This document shows positions 4,400 to 11,498 of a stretch of DNA of 38,703 nucleotides, one piece after another (within the stretch, counting starts at the first letter, position 1; every line of letters starts with the position of its first letter). The notes beneath the pieces are model-generated. The model did no database searches, had not been told where the DNA came from, and was given only the letters and a program-made list of their open reading frames with translations. The translations under genes were made by a program, and so were the position numbers. This DNA is from a virus (lineage: Duplodnaviria > Heunggongvirae > Uroviricota > Caudoviricetes): positions 1 through 38,703 of the IMG/VR virus record IMGVR_UViG_2724679538_000007; one strand, 5' to 3'.

Positions 4400-4585
4400 A
4401 GGATGCTCCTTCTGTTTGATTGCATAACGAAAACGCCTCGAGTGAAGCGTTATTGGTATGCATATAAAAAGGCCCCCACATCGGAGGGCAAAGAAGATTT
4501 CCAATAATCAGAACAAGTCGGCTCCTGTTTAGTTACGAGCGACATTGCTCACATAGCAGACTCGTAAATCTGCTATAGGCGCTTA

Positions 4586-4741
4586 TTCGCATCGCATGAC
4601 AACATCAAATTTTTCGAGATTACTTTGTCGCAACAATCCTTCTTCTACTCGGTCAGCTTTTCTATAATTATCAAATTCGAAATGTTTAATTACTTCTTTT
4701 GTTTCTCGCTCTATAACTTCAACGATGTATCTCTTATTCAT
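4586..4741 (-). CDS. Hypothetical small protein (51 aa)
   Basis: ATG overlaps the TAA stop of the upstream gene (TAATG coupling); not in the ORF track because it is under 60 aa. Confidence 0.3.
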
Positions 4742-5010
4742 TACTCATCACCTAGGGCTTTTTTGATAGCTTCGCGAGCCTTATTAACAGCTCCATACCA
4801 TTCTGGATATGTTGTCGTTGTTCTATTTTCGGCTTGCTTAAGTAATAACTGAAGTGCTTCAAGTAAATCCGGTGCAGCCATAGCCAACCTTCCATTTGCT
4901 ACGGCCTCTTCTGTTTCTTTACCGGATAGGGCCATTCCCGGGTGTGAAAATAAAATTAAGCCTGCAAAATTGGCTTCTCGCCAATTTTTCCTAGTACCTT
5001 TAAATTCCAT
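4741..5010 (-). CDS. Hypothetical protein (89 aa)
   Basis: ATG at 5010 with GAGG RBS (track ORF begins at an upstream TTG); PL operon orientation. Confidence 0.5.
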   Translation of the reverse strand: MEFKGTRKNWREANFAGLILFSHPGMALSGKETEEAVANGRLAMAAPDLLEALQLLLKQAENRTTTTYPEWYGAVNKAREAIKKALGDE

Positions 5011-5049
5011 GTTAGCCTCTGTTGTTTGTGCCAAAAATAAAGGCCACCA

Positions 5050-5301
5050 TCAGGCAGCCTTGTTGTAAATGTTGCAGGTATCAAGTAAGTAATTAGATGG
5101 AGCGCCATAAATTATGAATTCATCGTTTGTCGGGTCCATCTCCATCTCTTGGCCTATTGCCATTCTTGCGTCAGTGTCATCAGAGGCGAAGCATAAAACA
5201 GCCCACGCACCCATTGTTTTAAAAAGAACTGCAATTGGCTGTGGTTTTACTGAATTTGCGTTAGCGCGAAAATCACAAATCGCACTTTCATGAAACTCCA
5301 T
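5050..5301 (-). CDS. Hypothetical protein (83 aa)
   Basis: ATG with GAGGT RBS; PL operon orientation. Confidence 0.55.
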   Translation of the reverse strand: MEFHESAICDFRANANSVKPQPIAVLFKTMGAWAVLCFASDDTDARMAIGQEMEMDPTNDEFIIYGAPSNYLLDTCNIYNKAA

Positions 5302-5355
5302 ATATCACCTCAAATAAGTGGTTTGCTGCGAAAGTAAATACGCTTAAGTTACCTG

Positions 5356-5493
5356 TTATTTATCCCACCAAGTTCCGTATCTATCTATCCAGTTACACCA
5401 ATCATCGACACTCCATTTTGTTGTGTCGCATTTTGGCAACTGGCATGAATATCTACCTTCTTTGTAAAGTCGGCGTTTGACTTTCTTGAGCAT
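5356..5493 (-). CDS. Hypothetical small Cys/Trp-rich protein (45 aa)
   Basis: ATG with GAGGTG RBS 4 nt upstream; MLKKVKRRLYKEGRYSCQLPKCDTTKWSVDDWCNWIDRYGTWWDK; under 60 aa so absent from the track. Confidence 0.35.
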   Translation of the reverse strand: MLKKVKRRLYKEGRYSCQLPKCDTTKWSVDDWCNWIDRYGTWWDK

Positions 5494-5679
5494 GGCTCAC
5501 CTCAATCGTAATAAGCTGGAATTGATTTTCCGCGTTGCTTCTGGCGGCCTGAGCAAGTCACACCCATTTCACTGCGTGGCTTGCGGTAGTAAAGATTGTG
5601 CCTGTCTTTTAACCACATCAGGCTCGGTGGTTCTCGTGTACCCCTACAGCGAGGAAAATAGTAAAATCCTCTCACCCCC

Positions 5680-6042
5680 TTATTTTGTCAGGGGGATATC
5701 TCCTTCAGTTCTGACCATTCGCCTTAATACTTTCCTTAAGTCGATGTAAAGTTGAAGGTCTCCATTTGCTGCGGCATCAGCCATTTTTTGCCTGACAAGC
5801 AGTAATGTTTCATACGGCTCAATAAGAATATCGTCATGAGTAATTAGGTGAAGCGTTGCCGCATCAACTATTCCTAGAGCTGCGCCAAGTATCAAAAATT
5901 CCCTGCTATTTTTGTCGCATGAGGAGATAAGCGTATTTAGCGCATACCTAATATTCTTTATAGCTGTTGTTAATGCTGCAATTTCTTCTATGGCGTCCTC
6001 TTCAATGAGCTTTTTAAGCTCATATTTTTCTTCCTGACCCAT
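5680..6042 (-). CDS. Hypothetical protein (120 aa), first gene downstream of N
   Basis: ATG at 6042 with GAGGT RBS, 2 nt after the N stop; the track ORF (148 aa) would overlap N. Confidence 0.55.
   Translation of the reverse strand: MGQEEKYELKKLIEEDAIEEIAALTTAIKNIRYALNTLISSCDKNSREFLILGAALGIVDAATLHLITHDDILIEPYETLLLVRQKMADAAANGDLQLYIDLRKVLRRMVRTEGDIPLTK
5684..5712 (-). terminator. Hairpin plus U-rich stretch after the first gene downstream of N (tL1-like)
   Basis: Minus strand reads CCCCCT-GACAAAATA-AGGGGG followed by TGAGAGGATTTTACTATTTT. Confidence 0.4.
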
Positions 6043-6044
6043 AA

Positions 6045-6317
6045 TTACCTCGCCGTCAATTGTTTTGATTTCCGGTAGCCTGCCGCGTAAACGGCTACGT
6101 TTGGCAGGCAAATACTTCCACTGCATTCATCTGCCTTCTTGTAGCGAAGGCTTCCGAGTGATGCTGCTTTATCTGCTCTGACGCAACCAGAGAGCTTTAG
6201 CGCAATTTTTCGCGCCAGTCGCTGCTCTTGCATTGCCTGTTCACGTTGAGCCTGTCTGCGTGCTCTGCGGCGATTTCTGGCGTTATCGTCAGCCAGATAT
6301 GTAATGACTACTGTCAT
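6045..6317 (-). CDS. N-type transcription antiterminator (P22 gp24-like, 90 aa)
   Basis: N-terminal arginine-rich motif NARNRRRARRQAQREQ; C-terminus LPNVAVYAAGYRKSKQLTAR resembles P22 gp24; GGAGG RBS; nutL just upstream. Confidence 0.85.
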   Translation of the reverse strand: MTVVITYLADDNARNRRRARRQAQREQAMQEQRLARKIALKLSGCVRADKAASLGSLRYKKADECSGSICLPNVAVYAAGYRKSKQLTAR

Positions 6318-6423
6318 GTTGACCTCCGATGATTGACTTTGGCGGTGACGCGCCGGGTGCTTATCTTCCGGTTGCCGTCGTGCAGCTGCACTTCACGTCA
6401 CCCCAAAGCCAATTACTCTTTGG

Positions 6424-6466
6424 TTCCCGCATTTCGGCGGGACAATCCCATCAATGTTAAAGAGCC
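6424..6466 (-). promoter_or_regulatory. nutL (boxA GGCTCTTTAA plus boxB hairpin UCCCGC-CGAAAU-GCGGGA)
   Basis: Same boxB stem-loop sequence recurs on the plus strand downstream of cro (nutR); boxA matches the CGCTCTTTA consensus. Confidence 0.7.
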
Positions 6467-6511
6467 TGCCAATCTTTTCCGTTTGGCTTCCAGCTTCCTG
6501 CTGATGGCTAA

Positions 6512-6598
6512 AGAATACTGTAGGTATTTTATTGTGTAAATACCCAAGGTATTTATTTTTGATGAAATAATGATAAGCAAATGAATACAAAGGATATT
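6512..6598 (-). promoter_or_regulatory. PL promoter with OL operator repeats
   Basis: Three 15-bp near-palindromes, AATACTGTAGGTATT (6514-6528), AATACCCAAGGTATT (6539-6553), AATACAAAGGATATT (6584-6598); minus-strand -35 TTTACA and -10 TATTCT separated by 17 nt and overlapped by the first two sites. Confidence 0.55.
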
Positions 6599-6684
6599 TA
6601 TTTTTTCGGTGTCTGCTTGTTCAGTGCTTTTTATGCGGGATATGTGAAGTGGATCCCGATAGCTATTGCTGCCGGGATTATAGG

Positions 6685-7053
6685 TTAGTCAGCGAAGGTT
6701 AAGACGAGAATTACCTTAATGATGTCTGCTACAACAGACACGGCCATAGATAAACCAAAGACGATCCAAGCCACAGTGATGTCTTCACTACCATCGTATA
6801 GAGTTCCGTAATCACTGGTGTAAGGCGTAAATGTCGCGCCTTGATACAATAGGTATAAGCTTGATCCATAGAGGATAAATGCAGATATCCCTTGTATTGC
6901 TATGATCACCAGAATCATGAAACGAGCTGATCTATGCGCCCAAGCCTGGCTTATTTTTTCTGATAGAGATTTCGCAATAAAAGCATGCGCTAAGCCGTAA
7001 ATTGTCGAGATTGCCAACATCCCAAAAAAGCTTGCTATAGCGGTTCCAACCAT
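6685..7053 (-). CDS. Small polytopic membrane protein (122 aa) co-transcribed with cI; candidate exclusion/abortive-infection factor
   Basis: ATG 18 nt after the cI stop with AAGGGGG RBS; three hydrophobic helices predicted by eye; occupies the rexA/rexB position. Confidence 0.6.
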   Translation of the reverse strand: MVGTAIASFFGMLAISTIYGLAHAFIAKSLSEKISQAWAHRSARFMILVIIAIQGISAFILYGSSLYLLYQGATFTPYTSDYGTLYDGSEDITVAWIVFGLSMAVSVVADIIKVILVLTFAD

Positions 7054-7071
7054 AAGCGCCCCCTTGCGTGA

Positions 7072-7788
7072 TCAAACCAGTCTGAGTTTTGTCTCAATTG
7101 CAACGCCTATAATCTTGCAGTTTCCATTGATTGGCACGAGAGGCCATGCAGGATTAAGTCCCTTGAGGTATTTATTTCCGCCGTCGATTATCAGCTTCTT
7201 GAATGTTGCTTCGTTAGAGTCAGAAAGTTTTGCTATGACCAAGCTGCCGTTGATCGCCTCCCTTCCGGTATCGAAAAGAACGAATGTTCCCTCTGGAATG
7301 CTTAACCCAACCGGTGCCGTCATTGAATCACCTTCCACTTTAAGCCAGAACGCATTACCTTGAATATGCGCGTCAGACTCAAGCCAAACATCTATGTCTT
7401 TAATGGTGTATGGTTCGCATGCTTCACACCACGAGCCAGCCTGGATACTGCTTAACACCGGATACCTCTTTCCTGCTCTGTATTCCCCTGCATACCTTAC
7501 GTTGGCATCGCTCTTAAGGCTTTCTGCCTGTTCTGCAACCTTGGCAGCAATTGACTGGCTAAAATCAGCAATTGAGACTTGCAACAATCGTGCAAAACCA
7601 GATGCAACCTCAACGTTTAGCGCATTTCTGCCATTAAGATAATGCCCTACCGCTCCTTGGGTGATACCCAGTTCATCAGCGATTGAGTATTGGGTTATTC
7701 CCAATTCTTTCTTTTTTGACTCATACAAAGCCTTAAGCCGCTTAGCGTCTTCCAGCTGTTCTGTCGTCAGTGATTTTTTATTTTCCAT
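7072..7788 (-). CDS. cI: CI-type prophage repressor (HTH N-domain plus LexA/S24-like autocleavage C-domain, 238 aa)
   Basis: LTTEQLEDAKRLKALYESKKKELGITQ and FWLKVEGDSMTAP ... FKKLI ... LNP parallel lambda CI ([47 protein letters not shown]). Confidence 0.93.
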   Translation of the reverse strand: MENKKSLTTEQLEDAKRLKALYESKKKELGITQYSIADELGITQGAVGHYLNGRNALNVEVASGFARLLQVSIADFSQSIAAKVAEQAESLKSDANVRYAGEYRAGKRYPVLSSIQAGSWCEACEPYTIKDIDVWLESDAHIQGNAFWLKVEGDSMTAPVGLSIPEGTFVLFDTGREAINGSLVIAKLSDSNEATFKKLIIDGGNKYLKGLNPAWPLVPINGNCKIIGVAIETKLRLV

Positions 7789-7823
7789 AGCTTAATTCTA
7801 ATAGCTAAGGTACTTAAACTAAA

Positions 7824-7865
7824 AATACCCTAAGTATTGATTGCTTTGAATACCTGTAGTATTCT
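7824..7865 (+). promoter_or_regulatory. OR operators and PR promoter
   Basis: AATACCCTAAGTATT (7824-7838) and AATACCTGTAGTATT (7849-7863) share the OL consensus; candidate PR -35 TTGATT (7837-7842) and -10 TATTCT (7860-7865) with 17-bp spacer. Confidence 0.5.
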
Positions 7866-7894
7866 TTGTTCATGGTTAATAACGGAGAGTGCAT

Positions 7895-8089
7895 ATGATT
7901 CGAATGACACTTGCCGATTACGCCAAAATCCATGGACAGGCTAAAGCAGCCAGTGACTTTGGTGTAATCCAGTGCGCTATCAGCAAGGCCATTCTGGCAG
8001 GCCGTAACATTATGGTTACGGTAAAGCCTGATGGCAGTGTGATTGGAGAGGAAGTTCGTCCTTTCCCAAGCAACAAGAAAAACAAATAG
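7895..8089 (+). CDS. cro: Cro repressor (64 aa)
   Basis: [62 protein letters not shown] parallels lambda Cro; GGAGAG RBS; track ORF starts at an upstream GTG. Confidence 0.9.
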
Positions 8090-8095
8090 TAACAC

Positions 8096-8140
8096 CGCTC
8101 TTTAACAGTCATGGTCCTCATTCCCGCCGAAATGCGGGAA
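8096..8140 (+). promoter_or_regulatory. nutR (boxA CGCTCTTTA plus boxB hairpin TTCCCGC-CGAAAT-GCGGGAA)
   Basis: BoxB stem-loop identical in sequence to the nutL copy; located between cro and cII. Confidence 0.7.
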
Positions 8141-8197
8141 TACAACGCGCATAAGTTGATGCGCATAACTTCTTATTAGTTAAGGAAATACTTACAT

Positions 8198-8476
8198 ATG
8201 CAACTTACAAGTACTCGCAAGAAAGCGAATGCAATTACAAGCAACATCCTGAATCGAATTGCTGTACGTGGTCAGCGAAAGGTTGCCGACGCGTTAGGGA
8301 TTAATGAATCGCAAATTTCGCGATGGAAAGACAGCTTCATCCCAAAAATGGGAATGCTTCTGGCTGTTCTTGAATGGGGTGTTGAAGACGAGGAGTTGGC
8401 GGAACTGGCTAAGAAAGTAGCAAGAATGCTGACAAAAGAAAAAGCCCCGAAGAACGGCGAATTCTTCGAGGCCTGA
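8198..8476 (+). CDS. cII: CII transcriptional activator (92 aa)
   Basis: [57 protein letters not shown] parallels lambda CII ([49 protein letters not shown]). Confidence 0.9.
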
Positions 8477-8510
8477 TGTAGAAAGACTGGATCAATCCAC
8501 AGGAGTAATT

Positions 8511-8657
8511 ATGACAAAACAACTCAGTCCTTACCAGGACAAAATTCACAAACACATACTACGTGATCGCTTCCTGTCCAGCTTCAAGCAGCCTGGTCGA
8601 TTCCGGGCTGAGTTGGAAAAAGTGAAGCTGATGCAGAAGGAGAAAGGTCATGAGTAA
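8511..8657 (+). CDS. Hypothetical small ORF (48 aa) between cII and O
   Basis: ATG with AGGAG RBS; its stop overlaps the O start; not in track (under 60 aa). Confidence 0.3.
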
Positions 8658-9510
8658 TCTTGCAACCGTAACACATTTAAGGCCTTCACAACGGCCTGTG
8701 GAGCGTCGTGTGGCAGAAGTTGAAGATGGTTATACCCGTCTTGCAAATGCCCTGTATGAAGAGCTTATCGGCGCAGATTTAACGAAAAATCAGAGCAAGG
8801 TTGCCCACGCCATATGCCGTAAAACATACGGCTACGGTAAAAAGATGGATCGCATCTCTGATAGTCAGTTAGCTCAAATTACCAGGCTGCCAAGACAGAA
8901 GGTAAACAAGGCCAAGAATGAGCTTATCGCGATGAAGGTTATCCTTCGCGAAGGCCAGCAAATCGGGCCTAACAAGAACATCGAGGAATGGCAAATCGAA
9001 GGGTGTCACTACTCTGGTGATAATGTCACTGCATTGGTGACAAAAAGTGTCACCAAAACGGTGACAGCGCTGTCACCAAAACAGGGACACACAAAAGAAA
9101 CTATTACAAAAGAAAAAAGAAATAATAAAAACACTATGTCCGAAAGTGTTCGGACGGAGTGTGAAAAATCACCTGACCGTCACGAAGAAACCGACAAGGC
9201 ATTCGAGGAAATATTCTGGTGTGCAGGCATGCGGAAAGCCGGGAAGAAAAACGCAGCTTCGGCATTCAGAACACAGTTCAGGGAATGGCGTAAAACTACC
9301 AGGGGTACGGCAAGCGAGTTTGCCACGATGTTGGCAGAAGACATCGCATGCAGGAATGGTAAGCAGTTCGGATTCGACAGGTTGTTACCATCGAGCTACC
9401 TGAACGGTCAACGCTGGAACGACGAAAAGCCAGAAACCATTCAACCACAATCCAAACCATCATCCGCAATCACCGTATCGAAAACTGGCTACGTGTTTTT
9501 CGACAGGTGA
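8650..9510 (+). CDS. Replication initiator, lambda O family (286 aa)
   Basis: N-terminal domain parallels lambda O (DGY.RL...GADLTK.Q.KV...RKTYG..K.MDRI.DSQL..IT.LP ... GPNKNI.EW); contains the ori iterons internally. Confidence 0.9.
9003..9135 (+). repeat. Origin of replication: inverted/direct iterons (GTGACA/TGTCACC units) followed by an AT-rich tract
   Basis: ggtgacaaaaagtgtcaccaaaacggtgacagcgctgtcaccaaaacagggacac followed by acaaaagaaactattacaaaagaaaaaagaaataataaaaacac; same layout as ori-lambda inside O. Confidence 0.6.
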
Positions 9511-9513
9511 ACC

Positions 9514-9621
9514 ATGAAATCAAAAATCAAATCGCTACTGGTCGCTGGTTATAACCACGGCTGGTTAAGTATTTCATTTGTCGATTTCTGGTTTAAAAAT
9601 CTCAATCTGAGGGAATCATGA
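9514..9621 (+). CDS. Hypothetical small ORF (35 aa) between O and the helicase gene
   Basis: ATG 4 nt after the O stop; TGA overlaps the helicase ATG (ATGA); no clear RBS. Confidence 0.25.
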   Translation: MKSKIKSLLVAGYNHGWLSISFVDFWFKNLNLRES

Positions 9622-11498
9622 CGCCAAGTGAACTTAGCGACCTGCTTTGGGCGCAGGTTGACAGGGTGGCTCCGCACCTGTTGCCAAACGGCAAGAAAGA
9701 GGGGCATGAGTGGGTTGCCGGTAACGTCAACGGCGACAAGGGAAACAGCCTTAAGGTCAACCTTAGCGGCAAGAAAAAATGGGCTGATTTCGCCGAGGGA
9801 GACGGCGGTGACATGCTTGATTTGTGGATGGCATGTCGTGGAATTAACCTGCATCAGGCTATGCAGGAAGCGAAAGCATTTCTCGGTATCAAGGATGACG
9901 ATCACCATTTCGATGCCAAACGTGAGAAAAAATTCTCCAGACCTGATCGCAAGAAAATCGCCCGCTACGTTACCAGAACAGAATCCCATCTTGAGTACCT
10001 GCAATCGCGTGGCATATCGCCAGAAATCGTAAAGCGCTACGAGGTTGTCAGCGGCAAGGTGTGGAATGGAGAGCGGGAACTGGATGCTCTGGTGATTCCG
10101 TACAAACGCGATGGTGAGTTGTTGCAGGTCAAGCGAATCAGCACTGAGCGCCCGGACGGGAAGAAAGTCATTATGGCAGAAGGTGATTGCGAACCTTGTC
10201 TGTTCGGATGGCAGGCTCTGGACGCTGGCGTGAGGGCGGTTGTACTTTGCGAAGGCGAAATTGATTGTATGAGCTATGCGCAATACGGCATCTCGGCGTT
10301 ATCCGTGCCGTTTGGTGGCGGGAAAGGCGCTAAGCAACAGTGGATTGAGTTTGAGTATCACAACCTCGACAGGTTTGAGGAAATATTCATCTCGATGGAT
10401 GTTGATGATGTTGGTCGTGAAGCCGCAAGGGAAATCGCAAGCCGACTCGGTGAACATCGTTGCCGTCTTGTTACTCTGCCGTACAAAGACATCAACGAAT
10501 GCCTGATGAACGGTGTTACCGAGGATGAAATCTGGCAGTACATCGGCACGGCATCCTACTTCGATCCTGAAGAACTCTACAGCGCGCGAGAGTTTTACCA
10601 GGACACTATCAACGCTTTCTACGGCAAGCAGCAGTATCTGTTTAATCCACCGTGGGAATCTCTGGCAGATAAATTCCAGTTCCGTGAGGCCGAGTTGACG
10701 CTGGTCAATGGTGTGAACGGTCACGGAAAAACGGAGGTTGTCGGGCATATGGCACTTGAGGCAATGCGTCAGGGTGTGAAGACGTGCATCGCGTCACTTG
10801 AGCTGAAGCCAGGCATTCTCCTTAAGCGACTTACCCGTCAGGCGACGTGCTGCAAGATGCCGCCAGTGCTGGAAATTGACTCTGCATTTAAATTTTATGA
10901 CGAAAGACTTTGGGTGTTTGGCCTGACCGGAACGGCGAAAGCCGACAGGCTGATCGAAATATTCGACTACGCTCGCCGCCGATACGGCATCCAGTTATTC
11001 ATCATCGACAGCCTGATGAAATGTGGCATAGGCGACGATGACTATAACGGGCAGAAGGCGTTTGTTGACTCGATTTGCGATTTCAAAAACAAAACAAACT
11101 CCCACGTCATTCTCGTTACTCACTCGCGAAAAGGTGACAGCGAAGAAAAACCAACCGGGAAAATGGACGTAAAAGGCTCTGGAGCGATAACAGACCTGAC
11201 AGACAACCTTTTCATCATCTGGCGTAACAAGGCTCGCGAGAGAGCGTTACAGAGAGTTCAGAGTGGTGAAAAGATGTCAGAGAAGGACGAACAGCTACTG
11301 GCATCTCCGGCATCTGTTTTGATGCTTGAAAAACAACGTAACGGCGAAGGTTGGGAAGGTGGTGTCCCGTTGTTCCTTGACGAGCAATCGCACCAGTTCC
11401 TGCAACTTGAATCAGGATCGCCATATAGCTACATCGCCAATATGCCGAAATCGGAATATGACGAGGCGTGGCGACAGGAAAACGTGACGGAGTATTAA
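9618..11498 (+). CDS. Replicative primase-helicase-like protein (626 aa) in the lambda P position
   Basis: Walker A TLVNGVNGHGKTEVV and Walker B-like LFIIDSLMK in the C-terminal half; N-terminal half with primase/TOPRIM-like acidic motifs (VVLCEGEIDCMSY, ISMDVDDVG); GAGGG RBS. Confidence 0.8.
   Translation: MTPSELSDLLWAQVDRVAPHLLPNGKKEGHEWVAGNVNGDKGNSLKVNLSGKKKWADFAEGDGGDMLDLWMACRGINLHQAMQEAKAFLGIKDDDHHFDAKREKKFSRPDRKKIARYVTRTESHLEYLQSRGISPEIVKRYEVVSGKVWNGERELDALVIPYKRDGELLQVKRISTERPDGKKVIMAEGDCEPCLFGWQALDAGVRAVVLCEGEIDCMSYAQYGISALSVPFGGGKGAKQQWIEFEYHNLDRFEEIFISMDVDDVGREAAREIASRLGEHRCRLVTLPYKDINECLMNGVTEDEIWQYIGTASYFDPEELYSAREFYQDTINAFYGKQQYLFNPPWESLADKFQFREAELTLVNGVNGHGKTEVVGHMALEAMRQGVKTCIASLELKPGILLKRLTRQATCCKMPPVLEIDSAFKFYDERLWVFGLTGTAKADRLIEIFDYARRRYGIQLFIIDSLMKCGIGDDDYNGQKAFVDSICDFKNKTNSHVILVTHSRKGDSEEKPTGKMDVKGSGAITDLTDNLFIIWRNKARERALQRVQSGEKMSEKDEQLLASPASVLMLEKQRNGEGWEGGVPLFLDEQSHQFLQLESGSPYSYIANMPKSEYDEAWRQENVTEY

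Follow-up and report, generated by a model that had tools for sequence, protein, structure and literature searches.

Putative nutL and nutR sites of an HK620-like phage share a boxB hairpin that, together with the arginine-rich motif of N, probably defines a separate specificity class in the phage 21 lineage

The 38.7-kb stretch of DNA analysed here (the window) represents an HK620-like phage and has the same gene order as HK620 (AF335538 / NC_002730) in its early region, PL-nutL-N and PR-cro-nutR-cII (Table 1). The N gene (6045-6317, minus strand, 90 aa) is the first gene of the PL operon and lies 107 nt downstream of the nutL boxB, such that nutL is situated between PL and the N start codon (6315-6317). 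On the opposite strand, cro ends with a TAG stop codon at 8087-8089 and nutR begins 7 nt beyond it. PR fell below the threshold of a simple promoter scan and its position rests on the HK620 annotation. The HK620 tR1 annotation falls at the equivalent of 8141-8147, and the HK620 record places tL2A-C in the PL operon, upstream of cIII/kil. The window differs from HK620 in lacking the hkaP segment and in keeping an older N 3' end as a fossil at 5502-5593, where HK620 homology stops.

Table 1. Positions of the early regulatory features in the window
Feature	Coordinates	Strand	Sequence and evidence
Intrinsic-terminator-like hairpins	4432..5061	-	5061-5040, 4489-4472 and 4451-4432; terminator scan; PL operon 3' of N
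N codons 65-90 and stop	6045..6125	-	933W/HK97/P22-type C-terminus (...CLPNVAVYAAGYRKSKQLTAR)
N codons 34-64 (centre)	6126..6218	-	Near-identical to phage 21 N (BLASTP)
N codons 8-33 (ARM)	6219..6296	-	LADDNARNRRRARRQAQREQAMQEQR; predicted boxB-binding helix; translation
nutL boxB	6425..6442	-	UCCCGC-CGAAAU-GCGGGA, 6-bp stem and hexaloop; exact repeat, fold, identity with annotated HK620 nutL
nutL spacer	6443..6456	-	CAUUGAUGGGAUUG, boxA to boxB; kept in about 150 loci
nutL boxA	6457..6466	-	GGCUCUUUAA, core GCUCUUUAA at 6457-6465; inside mapped HK620 nutL
PL promoter	6512..6540	-	TTTACA-17-TATTCT, overlaps OL operators; promoter scan and HK620 pL/OL1-OL2 annotation
PR promoter	7837..7872	+	TTGATT-17-TATTCT; homology with HK620 pR
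cro	7895..8089	+	Pfam Cro, E = 3.6e-26, and HK620 annotation; directly upstream of nutR
nutR boxA	8096..8105	+	CGCUCUUUAA; inside mapped HK620 nutR
nutR spacer	8106..8121	+	CAGUCAUGGUCCUCAU; kept behind six or more different cro 3' ends
nutR boxB	8122..8139	+	18-mer identical to nutL boxB; 8-bp stem over 8120-8141
Candidate tR1-region hairpin	8147..8164	+	GCGCAU-AAGUUG-AUGCGC; fold; weakly U-rich tail; conserved in relatives

The window contains exactly two copies of the 18-mer TCCCGCCGAAATGCGGGA, at the two boxB positions, and each copy is oriented in the sense of its own transcript (PL or PR). No additional site was found in the window when up to three mismatches were tolerated, while shuffled sequences averaged 0.02 matches, with no shuffle out of 100 giving two. 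The initial annotation had reported an identical boxB in the PL and PR transcripts, which this exact duplication bears out, and had proposed RNA folding as a check: in 28-nt contexts, both copies fold with a CGAAAU hexaloop, on a 6-bp stem in nutL (-10.5 kcal/mol, z = -2.8) and on an 8-bp stem in nutR (-12.5 kcal/mol, z = -4.1). An Rfam search of 5000-10000 (E up to 10) returned weak chance matches and no nut or boxB family. The boxA sequence GCTCTTTAA is also present exactly twice, at 6457-6465 (minus strand) and 8097-8105 (plus strand), each time on the same strand as a boxB and 5' of it, with gaps of 14 nt (nutL) and 16 nt (nutR); the boxA-like strings reported earlier, GGCTCTTTAA and CGCTCTTTA(A), were correct. 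In both PL and PR, boxA is thus followed by boxB in transcript sense and close to the promoter, in positions that agree with the pL, pR and nut annotation of HK620.

Alignment showed that both nut sites are base-identical in boxA, spacer and boxB to nutL and nutR of HK620 (AF335538), features that the HK620 record labels "putative", and the N proteins of the two phages differ at a few residues only. This identity supports the earlier assignment of the sites as nutL and nutR and, since both match annotated HK620 features, means that the feature was already known; the implied novelty of the boxB is lost, as it is identical to that of an annotated phage whose nut sites are putative. The HK620 genome paper is Clark et al. 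2001, as cited in PMC2629481. Searches of the accessible literature for HK620 nutL, boxB and N protein retrieved no experimental characterisation of this N/boxB specificity. For the window itself, the analysis identifies the circuit that regulates the early genes of an HK620-like phage, and nothing unusual is hidden there.

The N protein matches Pfam PF25694 N_peptide (E = 8e-15, above the curated cut-off) and phrog_271 (E = 3e-32), while a PDB sequence search with N gave no relevant match because the peptides there are too short or divergent. Translation confirmed the arginine-rich motif (ARM) reported for its N-terminus, with seven Arg in the 14 residues of aa 12-25 (NARNRRRARRQAQR). Phage 21 N aligns with the window N at 55% identity over 64 residues, within which aa 34-64 are near-identical and the first 33 residues share only six identities. 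A junction at 6126/6125 separates this centre from a C-terminus of another origin: 933W N is 91% identical over the last 22 aa (aa 69-90), and P22 gp24, at 36% identity overall, has its matches concentrated in the last ~22 residues. Judged by these alignments, the window N is a mosaic of its own ARM (aa 1-33), a phage 21 segment (34-64) and a 933W/HK97-type, also P22-like, segment (65-90). The previous description of N as gp24-type therefore fits its P22-like C-terminus but not the protein as a whole, whose closest relatives are phage 21 N and 933W/HK97-type N. By analogy with lambda N, the centre would occupy the position of the NusA-binding region and the C-terminus that of the RNA-polymerase-binding region.

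The boxB sequences of lambda, P22, 933W/HK106 and phage 21 were taken from deposited records. The window boxB differs from all of these, which upholds the earlier distinction from lambda and P22 and extends it to 933W/HK106 and phage 21. Lambda shares the overall architecture, an N-terminal ARM and boxA-spacer-boxB in the PL and PR transcripts, but has a non-consensus boxA (GCUCUUA), a boxB of the form GCCCU-GAAGA/GAAAA-AGGGC with a GAAAA or GAAGA pentaloop, and an ARM with no recognisable sequence similarity to that of the window beyond arginine richness. P22 shares the consensus boxA GCUCUUUAA with the window and resembles it in the nutL spacer (AACUUCGAUG) and at the C-terminus of N (LPGVALYAAGHRKSKQITAR), but its boxB (GCGCU-GACAA-AGCGC, a GACAA pentaloop on a 5-bp stem) and the gp24 ARM GNAKTRRHERRRKLAIERD are unlike those of the window, which lies outside the P22 gp24/boxB class of GACAA pentaloop and GNAKTRRHERRRK ARM. 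The boxB of 933W/HK106 is the same GACAA type as P22 nutL, and the 933W/HK97/H-19B-type N, as read from 933W and HK106, is 127 aa long and has another ARM (GNSRSRRRERLKAKA).

The closest relationship is with phage 21 (imm21 region of DE3), whose boxA, upstream flanks at both nut sites, nutL spacer (CAUCGACGGAC) and nutR spacer (CAGUUCUGGCCUU) are all homologous to those of the window. The ARM of the window (NARNRRRARRQAQREQAM) matches that of phage 21 (TAKSRYKARRAELIAERR) in length and frame and can be aligned with it, and both boxB loops are hexaloops, on a stem of 6-7 bp in phage 21. However, the loop CGAAAU of the window equals CUAACC of phage 21 at only three of six positions: the four bases inside it form a true GNRA sequence (GAAA) in the window versus UAAC in phage 21, and the flanking pair is C·U versus C·C. 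The N C-termini also differ, being 933W/P22-type in the window and lambda-N-like in phage 21. Between the two phages, the nut flanks and N aa 34-64 are therefore shared while ARM and boxB are both different. By sequence, the nut flanks and ARM frame are those of the phage 21 lineage and not of P22. The common hexaloop format and ARM frame suggest that the window pair probably works like that of phage 21, although with neither a CUAACC hexaloop nor a TAKSRYKARRAELIAERR ARM it does not fall in the same class.

The association between ARM and boxB was followed across 142 loci that were retrieved by protein similarity, and hence without bias for boxB. In these, boxB was called by selecting the lowest-energy hairpin after boxA; a rule taking the nearest hairpin after boxA was rejected, as it picked an alternative pairing between spacer and boxB arm (UGGGG-UUUGU-CUCCG) instead of boxB. 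An [A/T][R/K]NRRR ARM was accompanied by an x-GNRA-x hexaloop, mostly CGAAAU, at 120/120 loci (22 haplotypes), and other ARMs by other loops, such as GACAA, GAUGC, CUGACA and CCAAUG, at 21/21 loci (15 haplotypes), a perfect association that is inflated by shared descent because many loci are close relatives. The one remaining locus encodes an R-to-H variant of the NRRR-class ARM with the loop CGAAAU. Loop variants within the NRRR class (CGAAAU, AGAGAU, AGGAAU, CGCAAU and CGAAAG) show GNRA-compatible changes only. Of the segments of N, the ARM alone is always found with this boxB; the remainder is exchanged, with at least five different C-terminal modules found behind the same ARM and nutL. The nutR module as a whole likewise follows six or more different cro 3' ends. 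The association does not reduce to a simple "NRRR" code at the residue level, given that one locus (L382) pairs an ARM of similar core, DNSRNRRRERRKQ, with a P22-type GACAA loop.

Several loci appeared to break the rule that this ARM implies both nut sites. L045, L057 and L190 were dismissed as exceptions, as they represent a prophage with a deletion in which cro is fused and Q lies adjacent. In L175, the nutR boxB is interrupted by an IS element, and other apparent exceptions were truncated contigs. This leaves mEp213 alone, where this N is present beside a second N gene and without a cognate nut site, indicating that the N protein can persist without its sites.

These comparative sequence data, namely the association of ARM with loop and the exchange of both relative to phage 21, support the earlier suggestion of a distinct N/nut specificity pair. 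The sites might instead be functional nut sites without a separate specificity, with the HK620-type and phage 21 ARMs interchangeable and their N proteins cross-reacting because both ARMs recognise a GNRA-like hexaloop fold. The two ARMs are indeed equal in length and align as A(K/R)(S/N)R(Y/R)(K/R)ARR, and both boxBs have hexaloops on 6-8-bp stems with C1, A3 and A4 in common; moreover, according to the account of PDB 1NYB in PMC12550061, UAAC in the phage 21 CUAACC hexaloop takes on a GNRA-like fold, with a C-C pair on its flanks. We nevertheless regard cross-reactivity as unlikely, since ARM and loop are always swapped jointly in otherwise near-identical N/nut backbones. Among the 142 loci, there was no NRRR ARM with a CUAAC-type loop and no reverse pairing. 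In near relatives, Tyr-containing ARMs (..SRYRARR or ..NRYRARR, as in phage 21) have phage-21-like loops with U2 (CUGACA, CUAACA and CUAAUC), whereas the Arg-containing ARMs have G2 loops.

Stem variation bears on whether the repeats act as RNA at all. In a set of 24 distinct hairpins, preselected for at least 6/8 pairs and with the loop fixed by the search pattern, seven of eight pairs vary on both sides and 0/500 shuffles reached the covariation score. Covarying stems around a conserved loop are the signature of an RNA hairpin and argue against the 18-bp inverted repeats functioning as DNA, either as a protein-binding palindrome or as a recombination or module-boundary sequence. Some features would suit such a role, in that the two arms of the stem are perfectly palindromic as DNA and mosaic junctions adjoin the sites: mEp213 homology stops exactly 3' of boxB, and cro types switch just upstream of boxA. 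However, the loop is not palindromic and retains its transcript sense on each of the divergent transcripts, the position relative to boxA is fixed, and nutL and nutR stems within one phage may differ while the loop stays the same, which makes a DNA-level function highly improbable. We attach equally little weight to a role for the hairpins in transcription termination or RNase III processing instead of N binding. They are stable, GC-rich and located in early leaders, but neither is followed by a U-tract (GCGGGAACCAAAG and GCGGGAAUACAAC), the terminator scan made no call at either, RNase III needs stems longer than these 6-8 bp, and a long leader stem elsewhere, downstream of nutL, could fill that role. 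A Nun-like exclusion factor was rejected because a phage that aimed a Nun-type arrest factor at its own nut sites would defeat itself, and because N has the C-terminus of the 933W-type N proteins, whose records annotate them as antitermination proteins.

Collectively, the 18-nt hairpins are very probably the nutL and nutR boxB elements of an HK620-like lambdoid phage, in which ARM and loop would constitute a specificity class of their own within the phage 21 lineage. Extending the lambda, P22 and phage 21 paradigm to binding, Nus dependence and antitermination, we infer that the PL and PR RNAs would each present boxA GCUCUUUAA, a 14-16-nt spacer and boxB UCCCGC-CGAAAU-GCGGGA. In N, the N-terminal arginine-rich helix at aa ~8-33, with NARNRRRARR as its core, would bind the boxB loop. 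NusB/NusE would be recruited by boxA, NusA may be contacted by the phage-21-like centre of N and RNA polymerase by its 933W/P22-like C-terminus, and the resulting termination-resistant elongation complex would read through tR1 and the tL terminators. The terminator-like hairpins downstream of N in the PL operon are likely substrates of this antitermination. We also infer that the pair is orthogonal to those of phage 21, lambda and P22.

Most likely, the boxB loop forms a genuine GNRA tetraloop (GAAA) with a non-canonical C·U closing pair, a geometry suggested by sequence variation and the phage 21 analogy; if so, it would be the GNRA counterpart of the C[UAAC]C hexaloop of phage 21. A broader proposal, to which we give about even weight, is that ARMs of the form …DNA[R/K]NRRR[A/x][K/R]R… read a GNRA-capped boxB (C·U, A-U or C-G closed) in a fourth mode, structurally distinct and orthogonal to those of lambda, P22 and phage 21. 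Such a mode would fill a gap between the UMAC hexaloop of phage 21 and the GNRA-mimicking pentaloops. Pairs of N peptide and boxB serve as textbook models for RNA recognition and as common tethering tools, and a fourth mode could provide an additional orthogonal peptide-RNA tethering pair beside lambda-N/boxB. The natural series of NRRR with C-GNRA-U and (S/N)RYR with C-U(A/G)AC-(A/C) in a shared phage-21 backbone also offers a guide for specificity swaps. The ARM/boxB pair forms a coherent, widespread class. Its taxonomic breadth is only sketched by a GTDB genome scan with 8 confirmed loci, 2 of them in mislabelled or contaminated MAGs; about 10% of complete E. coli genomes carry the module, which also occurs in prophages of Pantoea and Cedecea and in many phages from metagenomes.

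Across 5600-8500 the window is 98.4% identical to coliphage HK620, whose GenBank features run pL/OL1-3, "nutL; putative N-utilization leftward" and N, followed by pR/OR1-3, cro, "nutR; putative N-utilization rightward", tR1 and cII. Alignment showed that boxA, spacer and boxB of both window sites are identical to the HK620 nutL and nutR features, and searches with the N protein hit Pfam N_peptide (E = 8e-15) and phrog_271. What lies here is therefore the nut/N system of an HK620-type phage; it is real, the initial annotation was correct in outline, and HK620 already carries this annotation. Between PL and cI, a 122-aa ORF at 6685-7053 (-) matches HK620 hkaS (phrog_6534, function unknown) and occupies the position of lambda rexB; from its very hydrophobic sequence, the product was judged to be a membrane protein.

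Early-region features of the window
Feature	Coordinates	Strand	Basis
PL	~6512-6540	-	HK620 mapping; promoter scan agrees
nutL	6425-6466	-	HK620 mapping
N	6045-6317	-	HK620 mapping
PR	~7837-7872	+	HK620 mapping
cro	7895-8089	+	HK620 mapping
nutR	8096-8141	+	HK620 mapping

Exactly two copies of the 18-mer TCCCGCCGAAATGCGGGA are present in the window, one at 6425-6442 (-) and one at 8122-8139 (+), with no near-matches at up to 3 mismatches elsewhere in it, and two matches arose in 0 of 100 dinucleotide-preserving shuffles. Each strand holds one copy, so both early transcripts, leftward and rightward, carry the same RNA sequence, including the non-palindromic loop CGAAAU. In a 28-nt context, the nutL boxB folds into a 6-bp hairpin (-10.5 kcal/mol, z = -2.8) and the nutR boxB into an 8-bp hairpin (-12.5 kcal/mol, z = -4.1). 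The boxA core GCTCTTTAA also has exactly two copies in the window, at 6457-6465 (-) and 8097-8105 (+), each 5' of its boxB on the same strand, with a boxA-to-boxB distance of 14-16 nt. An identical boxB hairpin in the PL and PR transcripts, each preceded by a boxA-like element, was thus found exactly where the initial annotation had placed it, and RNA folding supported both sites.

For comparison, nut sites of characterised phages were read from deposited sequence. The window boxB is distinct from those of lambda and P22, as had been suggested, and is also unlike all others compared.

boxB hairpins of the window and of characterised phages
Phage	Site	boxB
Window	nutL, nutR	UCCCGC-CGAAAU-GCGGGA
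Lambda	nutL	GCCCU-GAAGA-AGGGC
Lambda	nutR	GCCCU-GAAAA-AGGGC
P22	nutL	GCGCU-GACAA-AGCGC
P22	nutR	CCGCC-GACAA-CGCGG
933W / HK106		GCGCU-GACAA-AGCGC
Phage 21 (imm21 of DE3)	nutL	UCUCAAC-CUAACC-GUUGAGA
Phage 21 (imm21 of DE3)	nutR	UCACCU-CUAACC-GGGUGA

Phage 21 has the nutL upstream flank, boxA and spacer (GCCAAACGGAA.AGATTGGCAGGCTCTTTAACAT.GA.GG) and the nutR boxA and spacer (GCTCTTTAACAGT..TGG.CCT) in common with the window, whereas boxB, alone within the nut sites, is exchanged. The arginine-rich motif (ARM) near the N-terminus of N, a predicted boxB-binding helix, is TAKSRYKARRAELIAERR in phage 21 and NARNRRRARRQAQREQAM in the window, of equal length and in an alignable frame, and in our reading of the backbone the ARM is the only part of N replaced. 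Judged by sequence, the window nut context is of phage 21 lineage, and the joint exchange of the ARM with boxB, the backbone being otherwise common to both phages, is what a change of specificity classically looks like.

N was compared by BLASTP with reference proteins taken from their own records. Phage 21 N is 55% identical to window N over residues 1-64 and near-identical across 34-64, 933W N is 91% identical in the last 22 residues (HK106 N is of the same type), and P22 gp24 has 36% overall identity, concentrated at the C-terminus. N thus reads as a three-part mosaic, in which aa 1-33 hold an ARM of its own, aa 34-64 a centre from phage 21 and aa 65-90 a C-terminus of 933W/HK97/P22 type. 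Therefore, the earlier label "gp24-type" is only partly apt, as it suits the C-terminus but neither the centre nor the ARM. The phage-21-like N is uninterrupted in relatives such as L104 (L-numbers denote related loci retrieved for comparison). Relative to L104-type N genes, the window carries a 532-bp cassette at 5594-6125 (-), comprising a new 933W/HK97-type N C-terminus and an hkaQ-like gene (5680-6042, phrog_7374), and at 5502-5593 (-) the displaced original N 3' end remains as a fossil reading frame (...YYRKPRSEMGVTCSGRQKQRGKSIPAYYD). The junction at 6126/6125 in the N gene is a true recombination scar. Homology with HK620 ends at 5599; from there HK620 carries another segment, which contains hkaP.

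Among loci found via N or via exact boxB, the same ARM and nutL occur with at least 5 alternative N C-terminal modules, and the nutR boxA-spacer-boxB module lies 3' of at least 6 different cro 3' ends. A pattern search with a forced stem change turned up phages in which the nutL and nutR stems differ and the loop is the same, for example UCUCCGC-CGAAAU-GCGGGGA at nutL and GCUCCCAC-CGAAAU-GUCGGAGC at nutR; only the ARM core (…SDNARNRRRAKRAA…) of their N proteins is common with window N. Across 24 distinct hairpins, a set chosen beforehand to form 6 or more of 8 pairs and with its loop dictated by the search pattern, both-side changes were seen in 7/8 stem pairs, and the covariation score was reached by 0/500 shuffles and collapsed in slid registers.

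In a boxB-unbiased test, loci were collected by protein similarity only, and the hairpin of lowest energy downstream of boxA was called as boxB. All 120 loci (22 haplotypes) with an [A/T][R/K]NRRR ARM (NRRR class) had an x-GNRA-x hexaloop, with GNRA as its inner four bases, and all 21 loci (15 haplotypes) with other ARMs had other loops, an association that represents consistency and not a P-value because many loci share descent. The one remaining locus has an R-to-H point variant of the NRRR-class ARM and the loop CGAAAU. The ARMs of intermediate relatives, Pantoea and Phytobacter prophages (NAKSRYRARRA and NSKNRYRARRA), have phage 21's Tyr and pair with CUGACA, CUAACA or CUAAUC loops. An exception-like case is L382, where an ARM with a similar core (DNSRNRRRERRKQ) is paired with a GACAA loop, so that the code at the level of single residues would be more than NRRR. 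The distinct N/nut specificity proposed initially is favoured by this co-occurrence of ARM and loop types and by the joint swap relative to phage 21, but cross-reactivity with phage 21, which would mean no separate specificity, retains a small probability. In divergent NRRR-class phages (L211, L213, L216, L299-L350 and others), pairing is also possible between the nutL spacer GAUGGGG and the 5' arm of boxB (UGGGG-UUUGU-CUCCG), an alternative structure that competes with boxB.

NRRR-class loops at nutL or nutR are CGAAAU in the great majority, with AGAGAU, AGGAAU, CGCAAU and CGAAAG also found. G at position 2 and A at position 5 are invariant; A, G or C occurs at position 3 and A or G at position 4, and the outer bases (positions 1 and 6) are C·U, A-U or C-G, a variation that appears to fit exactly a GNRA tetraloop whose closing pair varies. 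In a published structural analysis, the hexaloop CUAACC of phage 21 boxB is described as a UAAC (UMAC) GNRA-like fold with a flanking C-C pair, and the P22 GACAA pentaloop as GNRA-like with a single base looped out (PMC12550061). Going by the sequence variation and this analogy, the HK620-class boxB is probably the genuine GNRA version, flanked by C·U.

On this analysis, the best explanation for the nut sites and N of the window is standard N/nut antitermination, in which boxA would recruit NusB/NusE, the ARM would bind boxB, the remainder of N would contact NusA and RNA polymerase, and the assembled complex would read through the tR1 and tL terminators. Terminator-like hairpins are present on the minus strand at 5061-5040, 4489-4472 and 4451-4432, and a hairpin follows nutR at 8147-8164 (+). 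Readings of the boxB repeats as a DNA-level palindrome, or of the hairpins as a terminator or an RNase III site, are disfavoured because the loop is strand-specific, the stems covary and a U-tract is absent. Between the nutL boxB and the N start codon, the N leader (~6320-6400, -) contains a long stem of ~20 bp (GGCUUUGGGGUGACGUG...CGCGUCACCGCCAAAGUC), which we take to be probably the counterpart of the lambda N-leader RNase III hairpin; the 149-nt leader fold has z = -3.1, and the 933W/HK106 leaders show compensatory differences in that stem (GUGUGGUG...CACACCAC). Several relatives have ORF insertions between nutL and N, and that of L168 looks by eye like an HNH-type endonuclease.

The N/nut module is present in 525 of 5,426 complete E. 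coli genomes. No experimental study of the HK620-type N/boxB pair was found in the literature searched, a scope outside which the HK620 genome paper fell. The value added here is modest and lies in the descent from phage 21, the association of ARM and loop types in the boxB-unbiased test, and the reading of the loop as x-GNRA-x, which together define a testable and possibly orthogonal N-peptide/boxB class.

Some loci depart from this arrangement. The PL operon of phage mEp213 (L035 / L384, JQ182733) contains two N genes (L384 4001-4273 and 5426-5758), a PL-adjacent N of a different type and an "orphan" HK620-type N 1.5 kb downstream; no cognate CGAAAU-type boxA/boxB for the latter was found in the mEp213 immunity region, and homology to the window stops exactly 3' of the expected boxB position. 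The decayed prophage L175 has an IS element within the nutR boxB. In the deletion prophage L045/L057/L190, cro is fused to downstream sequence with the Q gene directly next, so nutR has been lost while nutL and N are kept. A GTDB genome scan placed HK620-type N/nut loci on Segatella copri MAG, Bacillales MAG and Martelella alba contigs (L291, L295/L296), almost certainly artefacts that arose when enterobacterial prophage DNA was misbinned or present as a contaminant.
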